From Candidatus Woesearchaeota archaeon (GTDB taxonomy: Archaea; Nanobdellota; Nanobdellia; Woesearchaeales; WAPJ01), in NCBI GenBank assembly GCA_047602765.1, contig JBLKOL010000003.1, forward strand, positions 1 through 58,451: a stretch of 58,451 bases of DNA. Direction: 5' to 3'. This document shows positions 9,286 to 16,633 of this stretch, one piece after another. A program made the translations under genes and the position numbers. The notes under the pieces were generated by a model that did no database searches, was not told the DNA's origin, and worked only from the letters and a program-made list of their open reading frames with translations. Positions within the stretch are counted from its first letter, which is position 1. Every line of letters begins with the position of its first letter.

Positions 9286-9425
9286 ACCGTGACCAGAGCA
9301 CACGGTGCTCATAAACCTTCGTGTTCGTACGAGAAGAATACGCCCCCGTAGTATTGGTCACCCAACGTACATGCTTCTCAGCGATGATGCGAAAGCTTTA
9401 TGTCCTCACACGCTCACGGACTCGC

Positions 9426-10172
9426 ATGGTAGGCTGGCTCATACTCGGAACCGTTATCTTCATACTGCTCATCGGACTCAAAGTCGTACACCAATACGAA
9501 CGAGGCGTCCTCTTCTTCCTCGGACGCTACCAAGGACTCATGAATCCGGGCCTCAGATTCGTCATACCCATCCTGCAGACGTGGAATAGGATCGACGTAC
9601 GCGTCATAGCCGTAGACGTACCCGACCAGGATTGCATCACCAAAGACAACATCTCAGTCAAAGCAGATGCGGTACTGTACTATAAGGTCTCGAACGCGAA
9701 GAGCGCGATCATCGAAGTACAGAACTACCACTACGCCGTATCACAGCTTTCACAGACGACGATGAGAGACGTTATCGGAGAAGTGACGCTCGACGAACTC
9801 CTCGCAGAACGCGATGGCGTCAGCAAACGCATACGACAGATCGTCGACAAAGCAACCGACCCGTGGGGTATCAAAGTCGAGAGCGTCGATCTCAAACACA
9901 TCGAACTCCCCTCGGATATGGTACGCGTTATGGCACGAGCCGCAGAAGCAGACCGTGAGAAGCGAGCGGTGATCATCAGAGCCGAAGGAGAACTCGAAGC
10001 AGCAAAGAACATGAGCGAAGCAGCACGCATCCTCTCGCTCCAAGGAGGAGCACTCCACCTGCGCACGCTCCAAACGCTCACCGAACTGAGCTCTGATAAG
10101 AGCAACACCGTCGTATTCGCCGTACCGCTCGAGATCCTCAAGGGCTTTGAGAATCTTGTGAAGAAGAAGTGA
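9426..10172 (+). CDS. SPFH/band 7 (stomatin-like) protein
   Basis: N-terminal TM, QYERGV.FFLGR, TKDNISV.AD, VDKATDPWGIKVESV and AEADREKRA motifs. Confidence 0.92.
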   Translation: MVGWLILGTVIFILLIGLKVVHQYERGVLFFLGRYQGLMNPGLRFVIPILQTWNRIDVRVIAVDVPDQDCITKDNISVKADAVLYYKVSNAKSAIIEVQNYHYAVSQLSQTTMRDVIGEVTLDELLAERDGVSKRIRQIVDKATDPWGIKVESVDLKHIELPSDMVRVMARAAEADREKRAVIIRAEGELEAAKNMSEAARILSLQGGALHLRTLQTLTELSSDKSNTVVFAVPLEILKGFENLVKKK

Positions 10173-10187
10173 CTACTCGGCATACAC

Positions 10188-10210
10188 CTCACCACGTACG
10201 AGTGGGTGAG
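10188..10210. terminator. Hairpin CTCACCAC-GTACGA-GTGG(G)TGAG between convergent SPFH and lonB genes
   Basis: Inverted repeat 15 nt after the SPFH stop; role inferred from position only. Confidence 0.3.
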
Positions 10211-10367
10211 TGCGGAATAGGAGTCTTTCGTCGTGTTGCGTACTTCGTTGTTGGAGCACACAGGGATCTGAAGCATGTGAGTGTTGAGCAATTAGGAGTC
10301 AGACTCTCGGTACACCGCTGAGAACTCAGCTTGGTGGTGCACAAACCAATCGTGTCGTGTGGTACTC

Positions 10368-12317
10368 TTACGACTTCTTACGGATCTGAGCGAGGACCTT
10401 GGTGTGGCCTTTCCAATCGATGACGTGTTCGAGGACCTCAACGATCGACTCGACCGGAACGACCTTGATACGCTTGAGACGTTCACGACCGATCACCAGA
10501 TCATTGAGGTTGCTCTTGGGAACGATGACATGCGAGACACCCGCATCGATCGCAGCCTCGACCTTCGCCGAAAGCCCTCCGATCGGAAGAACCTCGCCGC
10601 GGACGGAGAGCGAACCGGTCATCGCCCACTCCTGCTTGACCGGAACACCCTTGAGCGCGGAGATGATCGCCGTAGCTATGGCGACCGACGCAGAATCACC
10701 CTCGACACCCTCATACGTCTGGAGGAACTGGACGTACACATCCGAGGATTTGAGCTCGTCGCCGAAGAGCTTGCTGATGATCGCAGAGACATTGGTCACC
10801 GCTTCCTTGGCGATCTCACCGAGCCGACCGGTAGCGTTGATACGCATCTCCTTACCGCCTGCGGCGACCTCGGCTTCGATCGGCAGGATGATACCTGAAA
10901 GACCTGATTCTGAGCCCATCACCGCCAAGCCGTTCACCCGACCCACACGCTTACCCGACGTTACGATCACCTCGTACTGCTTCTTGCGTTCGATGTACTT
11001 GTCAGAGAGCTGCTGTTCGAGCGAACGAGCATAGTTCTTCGCACGCTCAACGTGCTCCGGAGTCACGAGCACAGCGCCCTCTTCGAGCGCGAGATCACCC
11101 GCAGCACGGATCAACCCTCCGAGCTCGCGAAGACGCAACGTCAAGTAATTCTTGCGCGAGGCGCGCTTACGCGACTCTTGCACGATAAGATCGACGCTCT
11201 TCTTCGAGAAATGAGGGATCCGACCGTCCTTGCGGACCTCTTGCGCGACGAACCGAGCGATACGCCAACGGTTCTCAGGAGTATCGGGCATCGTATCGTT
11301 CATGAGCACCTCATACCCGTACCCGCGGATACGCGAGCGTAGCGCCGGGTGCATCATCTTGATCGTCTCATAGTTACCCGCAGCGATGAGGATGAAACGG
11401 CACGGAACCGGCTCAGTACGCACCATAGCACCTGCCGAACGCTCAGACTGACCGGTGATCGGATACTTACCCTCCTGGATCGCCGTGAGCAACTCCTGCT
11501 GCGTCGTCTGGTGCAACGTTGAGATCTCATCGATGAAGAGCACGCCTAGGTGCGCCTTGTGGATCATACCCGCCATGACGCGCTCGTGAGCCGGAGTACC
11601 AAGACCGCCGGATTGGAACGGATCGTGCAAGACGTCACCGAGCAGAGCACCGGCATGCGAACCCGTCGCATCATAGAACGGAGCCTGATCGTTATCAGCG
11701 TTATCAACGATGAGCTTTGGCATCTGAACGCGCGGCTGCGTACGGCGCATCACGTTCGAATACAACGCGAACAACCCTACGGCGAGCACGGCAGACACGG
11801 TGAAGGCGAAGAGCATGATCGCACCGATGAGCAGCGAACCACCCTCGATCGTATACGAATAGTAGTCGAAGATCCAGCGGCCCACAAGCGAGAGACCGAG
11901 CATAACGATGATCATGATCCAGATGTTCCCCATCGGATTCTGCGTCATCGTAGAACGCGCCTTGGAGACGAGCTGGCGTCCTTGCCCCTTGGCTACTTGA
12001 GCGATGATCGGTGTGTTCTCATCGTTCTGGTTCGGATACGAGAGGATATCGACAAGCTTCTCCTCAGGAAGCAGTTGCGCGAGAGCGAGTCCGAGCATGC
12101 TCTTGCCCGTACCCGGCTCTCCGATGAGCAGGACGTGACGACGCTGCTGAGCCGCCTTGCGGATGACTTCCACGCCGTGCTCCTGACCGATCACCTGATC
12201 GATCGTCGAATCGGACACGTCGATCTGAGCCGTCGAATCGAAGGCCTTCGAAGAACCTTTCTTGGGACTCTTGCTGCTCGCATCAACTCGACTCACCCGT
12301 TTGATCTGCATGGGCAC
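10368..12317 (-). CDS. lonB: Archaeal membrane-anchored ATP-dependent protease LonB
   Basis: Walker [11 protein letters not shown] insertion in the AAA+ domain, Walker B LFIDEI, GDSAS catalytic Ser and downstream Lys. Confidence 0.96.
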
Positions 12318-12334: not shown

Positions 12335-13420
12335 TTATAAACTTTCTACGAATCCGTTATGATCCGGCATCGGATCAGGGAGCCGTTGCGGATCGAGGAT
12401 CCAGCCCTGATCGCGCAAGGCCGCCACCTGCTTGCGGTGTTCAACACCGATCTTGCCCACATAGAGTTCTGAGAGGTCGTGGCTGCGCAGGTATTCGCGC
12501 ACCGTATAGAATCCCTGGAGGTAGACGTGATCCTTGATGAGCCCGCCACCGCGATACGCCCGGAACGAGATATCGAAGGACTGCGAATCCGTCAATCCGA
12601 ACTCGTCACGCAACCGGCGGCACGAATCAGCCATCGACAACCCGCGCAGGACGTTCTCGACGGCGATCACACGAAGCGCATACTGGCGGAGCGTAAACTC
12701 GGAGATCGTCCCGAGCGAGACCTCCGTATACACGGCGATACCTTCCTCGGTCTCATAGTATCCTGCAAGCCCCACACCGAGCAATGAGAACGGCTGGACA
12801 CGACCGTTCTCAGCACGCAAGACGTGGACACCGACCTCATGAGCGATGAGCCGATGCGCATGGTCCGGAGCGAACCGCTTATGCCTCGGGATCCGGATCA
12901 TACGCTCCGAGTGGACGACCGCCGTGATCTCACGATCATCGAGCGAAACCGACCAGTCATCAAGACCGTACGAGGTGAGCGCCTCGCTCAACTGCGACTC
13001 GACGACCGACGCGTCAACGAGCGAATCAGGACGCCGGGACGGATCAGGACTCTTCAGGATACGATGAGCGCTCTTTACCGTATCAGACTCGAGACCCCCA
13101 TAGAGGGCGAGCGAGATATCCTTCAAACGAGGCGTTCCGATCGCATCAGAGAGCTCGATCTTGAGTTCGAGGGCTGTGAGCATCGGCTCGATCACCGAAC
13201 GCAACAGATCCGAGAGACCTTGCACGAGGATACGAGCCTCCTCGAGCAGTCGACGCGCATCCGAACGATCAGGACGCTGAGCATACTCGAAGGCTGGAAT
13301 GTCACCGTACTCGACGAAGGAGAGCTTCACATCACGCTTATTGAGCGGGGAGACGAGGGTGATCGGATTGACAAGGTACTCGATACGCTCGATAAGGCCG
13401 GTCAGACGCTCGATGGACAT
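12335..13420 (-). CDS. DUF1704 / MATCAP-like (QEGLA-motif) gluzincin carboxypeptidase
   Basis: AHEVGVH (HExxxH), ETEEGIA, GGLIKDHVYLQG and LYVGKI motifs; start reassigned to ATG 13420 (the ORF-track extension overlaps mscS). Confidence 0.85.
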   Translation of the reverse strand: MSIERLTGLIERIEYLVNPITLVSPLNKRDVKLSFVEYGDIPAFEYAQRPDRSDARRLLEEARILVQGLSDLLRSVIEPMLTALELKIELSDAIGTPRLKDISLALYGGLESDTVKSAHRILKSPDPSRRPDSLVDASVVESQLSEALTSYGLDDWSVSLDDREITAVVHSERMIRIPRHKRFAPDHAHRLIAHEVGVHVLRAENGRVQPFSLLGVGLAGYYETEEGIAVYTEVSLGTISEFTLRQYALRVIAVENVLRGLSMADSCRRLRDEFGLTDSQSFDISFRAYRGGGLIKDHVYLQGFYTVREYLRSHDLSELYVGKIGVEHRKQVAALRDQGWILDPQRLPDPMPDHNGFVESL

Positions 13421-13440
13421 GGTCGCGAAGCGTTCGACGA

Positions 13441-13473
13441 GCTTAAAAATGAATCGTCCGATACGCTTATAAC
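13441..13473. promoter_or_regulatory. Back-to-back TATA boxes for the DUF1704 gene (-) and the mscS-rimK operon (+)
   Basis: ATACGC-TTATAAC at 13461-13473 is ~27 nt before 13500; TTTTTAAG on the minus strand at 13442-13449 is ~22-29 nt before 13420. Confidence 0.55.
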
Positions 13474-13499
13474 GGCATCTCAAGTCCGAAGTCTCGCTC

Positions 13500-14942
13500 A
13501 TGGTACTCTCAACCGAACTCTTCGGAGCGTTCACCATCGCAGAAGCCGGCATCGCGCTCCTCATATTCGCAGGGTCCATACTCATCGCGCGAGGCATCGG
13601 ACTCTTCATACGCAAACTCGCACGAGCCTTCGACCGCGAGAGCAGCATCACGCTCGCAAAGACAACGAGCCTCTTCGAAGTAGGCATCATACTCATAGGA
13701 TTCCTCATAGCCCTCTCGGTCATACGCATCGAATTCGCAACGTCCCTGTGGACGAGGCTCGTGAGCATCGTACCCGAACTGCTCGTCTTCATCATCGTAT
13801 TCTACCTCGCCTACGTGTTCTTCTCGCTCATGCTCGACCTGCTCAAGAGCATCGTACTCTCAGCAGGAGCAGGATACCTCAAAGAATTCGACATCTCACG
13901 GAACGCCGTACACGCAGCGTTCTTCATAGCAAAATTCTTCGTCGTCATATTCTTCGCGAGCGTAGCATTGCGCTTCGCACGCGTCGACCTCCCATTGCTC
14001 GACGTAGTACTCGTAGCCTGTGTCTACGCTTCGATCGCAGCGCTCGTAGGCATCGCCTTCTACGCGTTCAAAGACTACGCAGCCAACATGCTCCTCTCAT
14101 CATACATCTCACGCAACGTCATACGCGTAGGACAGAAAGTACGCTACGACGGCAAGAGCGGGGAAGTGAGCGCGATCACCTCACACGGAACGATCATCAC
14201 GCTCGACACAGGATACAACGCGATCATACCCAACAGCCGCATCGTACGCGACCCGGTCGTTGTGAAGAGAGTCGAATCCGACCTGTCAGGACTCGACAAC
14301 CTCGCACGAGAATACACCGTGACGCTCAGCTCTGATTCGGGAATCGCGATCCTCGAAATGGTACTCGGCATCTTCGACGTACACAAGAAACGCGACGACG
14401 TCAAAGACGCGCTCAAAGCCAAAGACGACAGTCCCGACTCGGAGATACGAGCGCTCGCACGAGCTGCAAACACGCTGAGCAGCCAAGACGTGAAAGGAGC
14501 GTTCGTAGAATACAACCAACTCTACCACTTCCGACAAGAGATGAAGAGCTGGCTCACCGAAGAAGCCCTCATCGTCGTACACTACCAAGGGAAAGATGAG
14601 AAACACCCGCGCTACCGACTCATCGTAGGCGTCGAAGGAGACGAATTCATCACGCTCGACACGAGCAAGAACGGAGCCACCCAAGTCATCAACGCCTCAT
14701 CCCTTGAAAAGAGCCTCATCGACCGTACGAGCAGGAAAGGATACCTCATCTTCGCGAAACGAGGAAGCCCCGCCTACTGGCGTATCACCGAAAAACTCTT
14801 CTACGGTGATGTGAGCGCATACCAGAGCATCAGCAAGAGCTTCGAACGCTACCTCAAGAAAGTACTGCGCAAGAGCCGCGTCGTAAACACCTTCCTCTCA
14901 CCACACGTACAGGATAGGATCACACGCAAAGGTGAGCGCTAA
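13500..14942 (+). CDS. MscS-family mechanosensitive channel fused to a catalytically dead C39-like peptidase domain
   Basis: About 5 TM helices, MscS beta-domain (KDYAANMLL..IRVGQKVRYDGKSGEV..IPNSRI), then SGIAILEMVL..LARAANTL..PRYRLIVG..TLD..G matching the C39 pattern with Cys to Ser and His to Arg. Confidence 0.8.
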   Translation: MVLSTELFGAFTIAEAGIALLIFAGSILIARGIGLFIRKLARAFDRESSITLAKTTSLFEVGIILIGFLIALSVIRIEFATSLWTRLVSIVPELLVFIIVFYLAYVFFSLMLDLLKSIVLSAGAGYLKEFDISRNAVHAAFFIAKFFVVIFFASVALRFARVDLPLLDVVLVACVYASIAALVGIAFYAFKDYAANMLLSSYISRNVIRVGQKVRYDGKSGEVSAITSHGTIITLDTGYNAIIPNSRIVRDPVVVKRVESDLSGLDNLAREYTVTLSSDSGIAILEMVLGIFDVHKKRDDVKDALKAKDDSPDSEIRALARAANTLSSQDVKGAFVEYNQLYHFRQEMKSWLTEEALIVVHYQGKDEKHPRYRLIVGVEGDEFITLDTSKNGATQVINASSLEKSLIDRTSRKGYLIFAKRGSPAYWRITEKLFYGDVSAYQSISKSFERYLKKVLRKSRVVNTFLSPHVQDRITRKGER

Positions 14943-15761
14943 GTGCGCATCGCGCTCATCGGAGAATCCGAACACGACATCTTCACACGGCTCTCGAGCA
15001 TGATCGAAGCCGACTATATACCCGTATCCGAACTCGGATTGAGCACCGTAGGAGGCAAGAGCGGCATCGACCGCAACGCCAAAGGCCTACTCGACTACGA
15101 TGCTGTGTTCTTGCAGGTCGACGCACGACTCATGCTCTTCGTAGAACCGCTCCTCGACGAACTCGCCGAGAACGGAATCGCATGCCAGGTCAAACCCACG
15201 GCATTCAACATCCTCGCCAACAAACCCTACACGTTCGTGAGCCTCGCGAGCCGCTCGATCCCCATCCCCAAGATGCGATCCGTCGCGAGCGGAAGCGCCA
15301 TCGAAACCGCCATCGAAGGACTCGAATACCCGTTGCTCATCGAAGCATTCCGCGACCTGGACCGCACGCAGACGATGATCCTCACCGACAAACAGAGCCT
15401 CTACCCATTCCTCAGATCCATACCCTTCCAATACAACCTGATCATGATCCAAGAACTCCTCCAAGACACGCTCACCGAGAGCATCGTCATAGCAGACGAA
15501 GTGTTCAGCATGAGACATACGTGGAACGCAGAACGCCTCGAACACAACGCCAAAGCACAAAGTGTACGCATACGATCAGAAGAACGCCAGATCGCCATAG
15601 ACGCGACCCGCGCCCTGGGCATCGACATCGCACGCGTCAAGATGATCCAAGGACGCGTCATCAGCGTCGACCCGATCATACACGCCGACCGCTTCGAAAA
15701 GGTCCTCGGAATCGACATCGCATCGCACATCGCAGCATACTTCGTGGAGAAGACCGCATGA
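14943..15761 (+). CDS. Degenerate RimK-like ATP-grasp protein (probable pseudo-ligase)
   Basis: RimK layout (NK, PIP, YPL, IQE, ALGIDIA) but ATP-binding Lys replaced by Glu, no Gly-rich loop, GVD to RVK and ExN to SVD. Confidence 0.75.
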   Translation: MRIALIGESEHDIFTRLSSMIEADYIPVSELGLSTVGGKSGIDRNAKGLLDYDAVFLQVDARLMLFVEPLLDELAENGIACQVKPTAFNILANKPYTFVSLASRSIPIPKMRSVASGSAIETAIEGLEYPLLIEAFRDLDRTQTMILTDKQSLYPFLRSIPFQYNLIMIQELLQDTLTESIVIADEVFSMRHTWNAERLEHNAKAQSVRIRSEERQIAIDATRALGIDIARVKMIQGRVISVDPIIHADRFEKVLGIDIASHIAAYFVEKTA

Positions 15762-16633
15762 AACTGTGCATCGTAACTCAGGAGAGCAACGCTCCTCGCA
15801 AGAAAGAGTACATCGCCTCAGGAAAGAAATACTTCACCCAGGTCCTCGGCGTGAGCCTCAACCAACTACGCGTCGAAGCCGGTGAAGAGAAGCCGACCGT
15901 CATGTACAAGAACACCGACCTCTCAACGTTCGACGTCGTATTCTTCAGAGCACACAGCCAGAGCCTCCCCTTCAGCGAGATGGTCCTCGACATCCTCGAA
16001 TCGAACGGCGTGTACGTACCCAACTCGATCGACGGATTACAGATGACGTGCCACAAGTACCACTCGGTGATGCGCGTCGCACGCATCGGCGTAGCCGTAC
16101 CCGACACGAGCCTTGCCATCACACCCGAAGCAGCACTCCAGTACAGCGAGCGATTCGGATTCCCGCTCATCCTCAAACTGCTGCGCGGATTCGGAGGCCG
16201 CGGCGTCATGATGATACGGACCAAGGACGAGCTCAAACCCATCCTCGACACGATCAGCGTATTCGACGAATTCCTCTCGAGCCAAAAATACGTACCCAAC
16301 GCGGGAGAAGACCTGAGAACCTACGTGATCGGAGATGAGGTCATCGGCATCAAACGCAAGGGAGCCGAGAACGAATGGCGAGCCAACGTATCGACCGGAG
16401 GAACCGCAACGTTCATCGAAGTGCCCGAAGCGCTCAAAGAGACGAGCAGGCGCATCGCACAACTCATCGGACTCGAGATCGCCGGCATAGACTTCATAGA
16501 ATCGGAAGGAGACTACGTATTCATAGAAGCCAATTTCACCGCAGGATACCTACCGACCATGTTCGGAACCGAACTCCTCGACAAGATGATGGAATACCTC
16601 TACCACGAAACCGTCGAACGCGCAAAACAATAA
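15758..16633 (+). CDS. RimK family alpha-L-glutamate ligase (ATP-grasp)
   Basis: FPLILK..GFGGRGV, QKYVP..DLR, WRANVSTGG, AGIDF and IEAN motifs intact; ATGA overlap with the previous gene. Confidence 0.9.
   Translation: MKLCIVTQESNAPRKKEYIASGKKYFTQVLGVSLNQLRVEAGEEKPTVMYKNTDLSTFDVVFFRAHSQSLPFSEMVLDILESNGVYVPNSIDGLQMTCHKYHSVMRVARIGVAVPDTSLAITPEAALQYSERFGFPLILKLLRGFGGRGVMMIRTKDELKPILDTISVFDEFLSSQKYVPNAGEDLRTYVIGDEVIGIKRKGAENEWRANVSTGGTATFIEVPEALKETSRRIAQLIGLEIAGIDFIESEGDYVFIEANFTAGYLPTMFGTELLDKMMEYLYHETVERAKQ

Follow-up and report, generated by a model that had tools for sequence, protein, structure and literature searches.

What would two RimK-type ligase genes, a mechanosensitive-channel-like membrane protein, and a zinc carboxypeptidase be doing side by side in an archaeal genome? 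This question is raised by positions 12335–16633 of a 58,451-nt stretch of DNA (the window; contig JBLKOL010000003.1, positions 1 to 58,451) from a Candidatus Woesearchaeota archaeon (assembly GCA_047602765.1; genome G000), which an earlier note, made from the sequence alone, had read as a glutamylation writer/eraser system attached to a mechanosensitive channel. The source assembly is 69% complete, which limits the negatives on LysW and CofE given below. Judged by comparative gene order, the conserved unit is a three-gene operon encoding an MscS-type fusion protein and two RimK-family proteins (RimK-A and RimK-B), without the carboxypeptidase, a member of the MATCAP/DUF1704 family, as a fixed member. 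We give about an even chance to the reading that the locus is a membrane-anchored ligate-and-trim cassette, in which RimK-B would add α-linked glutamate, a neighboring hydrolase would remove it, and the MscS module would couple the two activities to membrane tension.

The four genes were confirmed by open reading frame (ORF) calls and domain searches, and their identities are those that the earlier note had named. The fusion gene (13500–14942, + strand, 480 amino acids (aa)) is followed by RimK-A (14943–15761, + strand, 272 aa), whose GTG start lies immediately after the fusion's TAA stop codon, and by RimK-B (15758–16633, + strand, 291 aa), which starts via an ATGA overlap. By these junctions, the three genes are predicted to form a translationally coupled operon, to which the MATCAP gene (12335–13420, − strand, 361 aa) is divergent. 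Two elements of the earlier note were thus upheld, namely the divergent MATCAP-like HExxxH carboxypeptidase across a 79-bp gap with two TATA-like boxes (from the ORFs, the PF08014 match, and the spacer sequence) and the coupled operon of an MscS fusion, a dead RimK, and an active RimK (from coupling, domain, and motif evidence). A pattern scan of 185,579 species genomes, together with look-ups by identity, yielded 14 independent trio loci, the neighborhoods of which were annotated by ORF listing and Pfam. The order fusion, RimK-A, RimK-B was found in every independent locus of sufficient length (12 of 12; 29–36% identity), with RimK-A encoded between the fusion and RimK-B in every case; in a thirteenth locus (L017), the contig ends within RimK-A. 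At least three DPANN lineages are represented, with loci in Iainarchaeota (among them the complete AR10 genome), other archaeal metagenome-assembled genomes, Nanohalalkaliarchaeum, and both the window clade and its sister genus, G003.

A metallo-amidohydrolase lies beside the trio in each of the 12 loci for which both flanks are available, and its family varies. MATCAP is found in the window, L014, L033, and L026 (Nanohalalkaliarchaeum); FGase lies directly after RimK-B in L015, L018, L019, and G003, and beside a third RimK in L025; an M20 enzyme is located within the operon in L020 and beside a third RimK in L022 and L024; and an AstE/AspA enzyme occurs in L026, additional to its MATCAP. Two genomes of the same family are complementary in this respect, with MATCAP present and FGase absent in G000, and an FGase overlapping RimK-B and no MATCAP in G003. 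The FGase, M20, AstE/AspA, and MATCAP families cut N-acyl-amino-acid or C-terminal amide bonds, often to glutamate, as in HutG, CPG2/LysK, AstE, and MATCAP/TMCP. Given that all four families cleave the type of amide formed by RimK, a ligate-and-trim (writer/eraser) logic is supported, and the occurrence of four unrelated hydrolases in one slot narrows the product down to an amide whose C-terminal residue is probably glutamyl. From these gene neighborhoods, MATCAP is taken to fill, in the window, an eraser slot that other enzymes fill elsewhere. By our own estimate, chance adjacency would be expected at ~2 in 1000 per genome, taking single-copy genes and a genome of ~1 Mb. The ligase/eraser cycle tied to a channel, as first proposed, therefore survives in its general form, with the trio conserved and a hydrolase adjoining it wherever both flanks are available, but not in its specific enzyme, MATCAP being one of four swappable hydrolases.

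The MATCAP protein is predicted to be cytoplasmic; its start was taken at MSIERL (13420), the mechanical ORF extending to 13795. It matches PF08014 at 8.7e-54 (183.3 bits against a gathering cut-off of 27; profile positions 10–352 of 365) and is a relative only, not a member, of the QEGLA equivalog TIGR02421 (199.7 bits vs. a cut-off of 338.65). The zinc motif is intact, consisting of HEVGVH (H194, E195, and H199) and TEEGIA (E226 and G227), and these five residues are invariant across 20 MATCAP homologs; HExxxH with a downstream EEG/QEGLA third ligand is what defines the MATCAP motif (PMC10499314). The top four PDB fold matches of the AlphaFold2 model (predicted local distance difference test (pLDDT) score 93) were all human apo MATCAP (7z5g; probability 1.0, TM 0.54–0.60), with M32 carboxypeptidases ranking after it. 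A sequence search against PDB chains returned no match at E ≤ 0.01, human MATCAP (~21% protein identity to the window protein) being recovered by the fold search only.

Of the two RimK proteins, RimK-B has every catalytic motif of an intact ATP-grasp ligase (K..GFGGRGV, D.R, EWRANVSTGG, IDF, and EAN), passes TIGR00768 (155.2 bits, cut-off 143.4), matches PF08443 at 2.2e-27, and finds its best PDB match in Pseudomonas RimK (7qyr, 5e-29). Its amino acid donor is most likely L-glutamate. The fold of RimK-A remains recognizable (PF08443, 36 bits, 6e-9); aligned to 7qyr, it lacks the ATP-binding Lys, the Gly-rich loop, R.N..GG, and the Asp/Glu/Asn metal ligands, the corresponding motifs reading IEAF/RDLDRTQT, ERLEHNAKA, VKM, and SVD, which places it outside the catalytically equipped ligases and makes the "dead RimK" call of the earlier note correct. 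The loss of the ATP-binding Lys (IEAF) was noted for the window clade, and the losses of the Gly-rich loop, R.N..GG, E.N, and the metal Asp recur in all 12 sequences compared (the window plus 11 loci), with the metal-binding Asp replaced throughout by Lys or Arg (VKM, VKI, and VRL) and the RimK-B motifs intact at every locus compared alongside. Identical losses in 12 of 12 sequences, including this conserved replacement, indicate an old, selected pseudo-ligase and not decay. A third intact RimK subtype (GKRG.., NWKKN, GIDLA, and E.NR.PG) is present in L020, L022, L024, and L025, which are loci of the Iainarchaeota type, divergent to the fusion and next to an M20 or FGase gene, with which it may form a second ligase/hydrolase pair in the same locus.

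The fusion protein consists of an MscS-family membrane part (13500–14258; residues 1–253), with about five helices including TM3a/b and then a β-domain, and a C39 papain-like domain (14278–14942; residues ~260–430, then a conserved basic C-terminal helix, SKSFERYLKKVLRKSR), the latter half having gone unmentioned in the earlier note. Against PF00924, the model of the MscS β-domain, the fusion scores 19.2 bits, just under the 20.2 cut-off, and its L026 homolog 27.1 bits, while a profile of the fusion family matches canonical MscS genes in ~230 further DPANN genomes (E 1e-16 to 1e-29; profile positions ~80–265). An AlphaFold2 model built from 47 sequences (pLDDT 88) was searched with Foldseek, and its N-terminal half matched MscK, MscS, and YnaI with probability 1.0. 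Profile and fold evidence together place the TM3a/b pore helix and the β-domain in the MscS family. In the fold model, the α-β cage domain and C-terminal β-barrel of MscS are replaced, as the β-domain (~206–253) is followed by the C39-like domain and C-terminal helices, and a Pfam search gave no PF21082 match in the fusion.

The C-terminal half of the same model matched the leader-peptidase domains of PCAT1 (7n87), ComA (3k8u and 5xe8), AMS transporters, and 6mpz (TMt 0.64–0.72), and homologs of the fusion carry MS_channel together with PF13529 (C39_2) and PF03412 (Peptidase_C39). Two C39 catalytic residues are lost in the window clade, the Cys to S280 and the His to R371, with D387 retained; by these residues, the C39 domain is predicted to be catalytically dead in the window genome, as it is in G003 and in the L026 type. 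Of the 47 family members, 32 retain the catalytic Cys and 32 the His, both being replaced jointly in the remainder. A rule by which a dead C39 goes with MATCAP, as in a peptidase replacement, was considered and rejected, since G003 has a dead C39 but an FGase. Leaving aside the channel core, conservation in the fusion is highest in the basic C-terminal helix, SKSFERYLKKxLRxxR (window 14818–14942), where K446, E449, L452, and R457 do not vary between the window, Iainarchaeota, and Nanohalalkaliarchaeum sequences; this helix could be a binding site for an acidic polymer or for the membrane. No signal peptide is evident in any of the four proteins of the locus, and the MscS β-domain that precedes the C39 domain is cytoplasmic, so all parts of the system face the cytoplasm.

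How these parts might work together can be laid out as follows. RimK-B, as a hetero-oligomer with RimK-A, would dock on a heptameric ring of pseudo-peptidase domains under the channel and would spend ATP adding α-linked L-glutamate to a carboxylate, be it that of free glutamate, oligo-glutamate, or an acidic C-terminal tail. MATCAP would take the C-terminal residues off again, and the MscS module would couple this cycle to membrane tension, so that the cell could turn osmotically active glutamate into inert oligo- or poly-glutamate and back, or could gate its release. MscS-type channels release glutamate, and MscCG of Corynebacterium is a dedicated glutamate exporter. A more elaborate version, which we consider distinctly unlikely, is a tension-coupled glutamate "osmostat" made up of a heptameric MscS-type sensor, a pseudo-peptidase ring recruiting the RimK-A/B hetero-oligomer, and a hydrolase counterpart. 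On stretching of the membrane, such a complex would polymerize glutamate, the main cytoplasmic osmolyte, to inert oligo- or poly-α-glutamate, or would release it via the pore, and the neighboring hydrolase would free the glutamate again when osmolarity rises. If true, this arrangement would save solutes where emergency release valves discard them, which would suit DPANN cells unable to resynthesize what they lose.

Several observations weigh against the ligate-and-trim reading. Its osmotic link is drawn from MscS homology and bacterial analogy, and the cage domain that defines MscS is missing from the fusion, while RimK-B passes only the general RimK-family cut-off. In a profile search, the full-length fusion was found in 20 of 401 genomes of the window's phylum (~5%), and the majority of these (including L029–L032) are lone genes with unrelated neighbors, an active C39 site, and no RimK, so the membrane protein must have a ligase-independent role; the RimK-linked fusion would then represent a subfamily of a wider fusion family. 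As an observation in its own right, the lone genes L029–L032 retain the Gln/Cys/His/Asp site, and lone MscS-C39 fusions with an intact site seem to represent a family of channel-tethered cysteine peptidases not described so far. MATCAP raises a similar difficulty, as most DPANN MATCAP genes lie among unrelated housekeeping genes. The earlier note had made its proposal depend on the co-location of DUF1704 and RimK in related genomes, and in most relatives the two are largely apart: a MATCAP gene is present in only 7 of 41 relatives, in 6 of which RimK is on another contig or 5 kb off, and of these six only G017 has MATCAP and RimK on one contig, at that distance of 5 kb. The MATCAP neighbors in order-level relatives are proteasome, AsnC-type, and phosphoenolpyruvate (PEP)-utilizing genes, and two further archaeal MATCAPs are also found amid housekeeping genes. 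Only 3 of the 20 fusion-bearing genomes have MATCAP at all, and in two of them (G105 and G209) it is unlinked to the fusion. L014 and L033 do share the window arrangement of MATCAP and operon; Lon, ArgRS, and PIG-L are also conserved in both, and that synteny alone therefore proves nothing.

This distribution is what would be expected if the adjacency of MATCAP were incidental, the true unit being the three-gene operon and MATCAP a general cytoplasmic carboxypeptidase lying beside it in one narrow clade. Although 10 of the 14 independent trio loci have no MATCAP, and MATCAP stands alone amid housekeeping genes in other DPANN archaea and is part of a neighborhood that is syntenic as a whole in L014 and L033, we consider this explanation unlikely in view of a second lineage, L026, in which a MATCAP of 28% identity to that of the window lies inside an enlarged RimK cluster, adjoining the AstE/AspA-type enzyme. 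The tree joins the L026 MATCAP to those of the window clade, albeit on a long branch and with weak support (82/91). Also contrary to an incidental adjacency are the MATCAP/FGase complementarity between G000 and G003, the bacterial locus L036, which combines two MATCAPs, an FGase, and RimK, and the low-salt induction of a DUF1704 gene together with a neighboring ATP-grasp gene (PMC10308900). Equally doubtful, in our judgement, is a system acting on protein tails, in which RimK-B would polyglutamylate the C-terminus of a specific protein, MATCAP would deglutamylate it, and the fusion would be only a regulator or scaffold. Precedents for it exist in Pseudomonas RimK, the closest solved relative of RimK-B, in the eukaryotic MATCAP/TMCP enzymes, which trim acidic protein tails and deglutamylate (PMC10499314), and in RimK/RimB, a proven protein writer/eraser pair (PMC11957791). 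However, no candidate target protein was found, and the C-terminal tails of the fusion proteins vary, for which reason the fusion's own C-terminus was rejected as a ligation target. RimK-B falls far under the S6-ligase equivalog NF007764 (92.6 vs. 331 bits), and bS6 is a bacterial protein, not in archaea. The alternative partners FGase and AstE/AspA are, moreover, classically small-molecule N-acyl-Glu amidohydrolases, and they point at least as well to small N-acyl-glutamate or oligo-Glu products as to the "tubulin-code-like" protein cycle of the earlier note, for which no protein target emerged.

The leader-peptidase fold of the C39 half invites a further explanation, namely the maturation and export of a ribosomally synthesized and post-translationally modified peptide or bacteriocin, with C39 cutting a double-glycine leader, RimK modifying the peptide, and the MscS-like pore exporting it. 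PCAT1, ComA, and AMS leader peptidases are indeed the closest folds, and the Cys and His are each kept in the 32 family members noted above, but the tightly packed loci (the window and the AR10 locus L022) leave no space for a precursor-peptide gene, the operon is retained despite a dead C39 in the window genome, G003, and L026, and RimK-type ligases add C-terminal residues and form no macrocycles; we regard this explanation as very improbable. A role in anti-phage defence was rejected, as PADLOC gave no convincing match, the only marginal one being of the fusion to PDC-M18A (E 4e-4, 17.8 bits). Least credible of all is cofactor or carrier chemistry, with RimK-B as an enzyme of the CofF, MptN, LysX, or ArgX type acting on F420, methanopterin, or LysW. 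The next-best NCBIfam models of RimK-B are those of MptN (NF040720, 129 bits), LysX/ArgX (TIGR02144, 120.1 bits), and CofF (TIGR04443, 64.3 bits), and some trio loci carry M20, the family of LysK, which partners LysX in LysW pathways; these scores are, however, far under the equivalog cut-offs of 350, 275.6, and 300 bits, respectively. The 69%-complete G000 assembly yielded neither LysW (TIGR01206) nor the F420 ligase CofE (PF01996), LysW being detected in four control genomes and CofE also in its controls, and this chemistry was rejected on the sub-cut-off scores and the lack of both genes. The earlier statement that F420, methanopterin, and LysW partners are absent accordingly holds for LysW and CofE; as for its methanopterin part, tetrahydromethanopterin (H4MPT) pathway genes were not searched for.

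Returning to the ligate-and-trim cassette, its closest known parallels are bacterial. In the RimABK system, RimK makes S6 tails and free poly-α-Glu, which RimB removes (PMC11957791, PMC4741518); shared with the window are a RimK-family ligase with intact motifs and a reversing hydrolase encoded alongside, whereas no retropepsin RimB or EAL-domain RimA was seen at the window locus, and the fusion and the pseudo-ligase of the window are without counterpart in RimABK. In RloABC of P. aeruginosa, an ATP-grasp ligase acts together with polyE-cleaving peptidases and with a membrane protein whose papain-clan domain is inactive, and the pathway is needed in hypo-osmotic medium; loss of the ligase or of the membrane protein suppresses the hypo-osmotic growth failure of the peptidase mutant, and its authors raise glutamate/polyglutamate homeostasis as a possibility (PMC12239564). 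The window system shares these three roles of ligase, membrane pseudo-enzyme, and poly-Glu trimmer, the ligase being cytoplasmic and RimK-like in both, and the hypo-osmotic phenotype matches its MscS module. Only the ligase is homologous, however, making the window system an analogue and not a member. The membrane part is a seven-transmembrane protein in RloABC and MscS-like here, the papain-clan domain is periplasmic and of transglutaminase type in the former and cytoplasmic and of C39 type in the latter, and the peptidase is a secreted retropepsin-like aspartic endopeptidase there and a cytoplasmic zinc carboxypeptidase (or FGase, M20, or AstE) here. The window system further has an obligatory pseudo-ligase, and its host is archaeal as opposed to gammaproteobacterial.

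The eukaryotic tubulin tail cycle (TTL/TTLL with MATCAP/TMCP1-2; PMC10499314) employs the same PF08014 peptidase family, with HExxxH and EEG and the 7z5g fold match, and likewise pairs MATCAP with an ATP-grasp ligase that adds C-terminal residues. It differs in that the window ligase is of RimK and not TTL type, there is no tubulin-like target, and the prokaryotic MATCAP is exchangeable with unrelated amidohydrolases. Among bacteria, Photobacterium damselae induces a QEGLA/DUF1704 gene, the next-numbered gene (annotated as the glutathione synthase GshB, of the ATP-grasp family), and rimK by 27–52 fold at 1% vs. 3% NaCl (PMC10308900). Such proteobacterial QEGLA (TIGR02421)/ATP-grasp pairs resemble the window in placing a DUF1704 gene next to an ATP-grasp ligase gene, but the partner ligase there is of another subfamily, and the window MATCAP is below the TIGR02421 cut-off. 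The pairing of TIGR02421 with TIGR02291 is reportedly given by Iyer et al. in 2009 and in TIGRFAM descriptions. As for canonical MscS proteins (E. coli MscS, YnaI, and MscK), their TM3a/b and β-domain are homologous to those of the fusion, whereas they have a cage domain and C-terminal barrel in place of its C39-like domain and basic helix, and the channel function of the fusion is putative.

A literature search found no published description of an MscS-C39 fusion or of a RimK pseudo-ligase pair. The logic of ligase, trimmer, and membrane pseudo-enzyme is known from bacteria, and the parts and the link to a mechanosensor are new. Set beside the bacterial RimBK and RloABC, the window cassette is an archaeal counterpart that had not been described. 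In bacteria, the characterization of ligase–peptidase systems for writing and erasing glutamate tails has only recently got under way (RimBK in 2016–2025 and RloABC in 2025), with the substrate and the osmotic link open in both. The archaeal cassette joins the same chemistry to a recognizable mechanosensor and adds an obligatory pseudo-ligase, and it offers a compact, soluble protein set for testing the products of RimK systems and their effect on osmotic tolerance. Through it, moreover, a prokaryotic relative of MATCAP is seen in the company of a ligase, in a setting that resembles the eukaryotic tubulin tail cycle.

The divergent spacer (13421–13499) is exactly 79 bp long and was read directly. 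It contains two putative TATA-like boxes, TTAAAAA at 13443–13449, which is 23–29 nt from the ATG of the minus-strand MATCAP gene, and TTATAA at 13467–13472 on the operon side, 28–33 nt from the fusion ATG, distances that would fit short-leader or leaderless archaeal transcripts. The corresponding spacer measures 79 bp in L014 and 89 bp in L033. Just past MATCAP, on the side away from the operon (window 9321–12317), lie an SPFH/stomatin-like ORF (9321–10172) and a membrane-inserted LonB protease (10368–12317); the Lon adjacency is kept in L014 and L033, with a glutamate dehydrogenase 3–4 genes further on in both relatives, and this vicinity of MATCAP is probably plain synteny. Of two supporting arguments in the earlier note, that from GdhA in the window reduces to such local synteny, and that from acidic proteins finds little echo at the locus itself, where the predicted isoelectric points of the four proteins span 5.1–9.4 and are not strikingly acidic.

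Some further gene neighborhoods merit description. The 366-aa ORF right downstream of the in-operon FGase of G003 (L037:3143–4243) gave no Pfam match and no similarity to MATCAP, and was rejected as a diverged MATCAP on the latter ground. The enlarged Nanohalalkaliarchaeum cluster (L026:11055–17712) comprises the fusion, RimK-A, RimK-B, a third RimK on the opposite strand, MATCAP, a fourth RimK, and an AstE/AspA-like enzyme that is fused to a biotin/lipoyl-like domain. In L036, part of a 6.9-Mb bacterial chromosome, two MATCAP-domain proteins (632 and 679 aa), FGase, RimK, FHA, PP2C, and a diadenylate cyclase (DAC) are encoded within 15 kb. Finally, the MATCAP of G029 (L012:4227–9094) lies downstream, on the same strand, of two PEP-utilizing mobile domain proteins (893 and 353 aa), which may provide another ATP-dependent partner for MATCAP.

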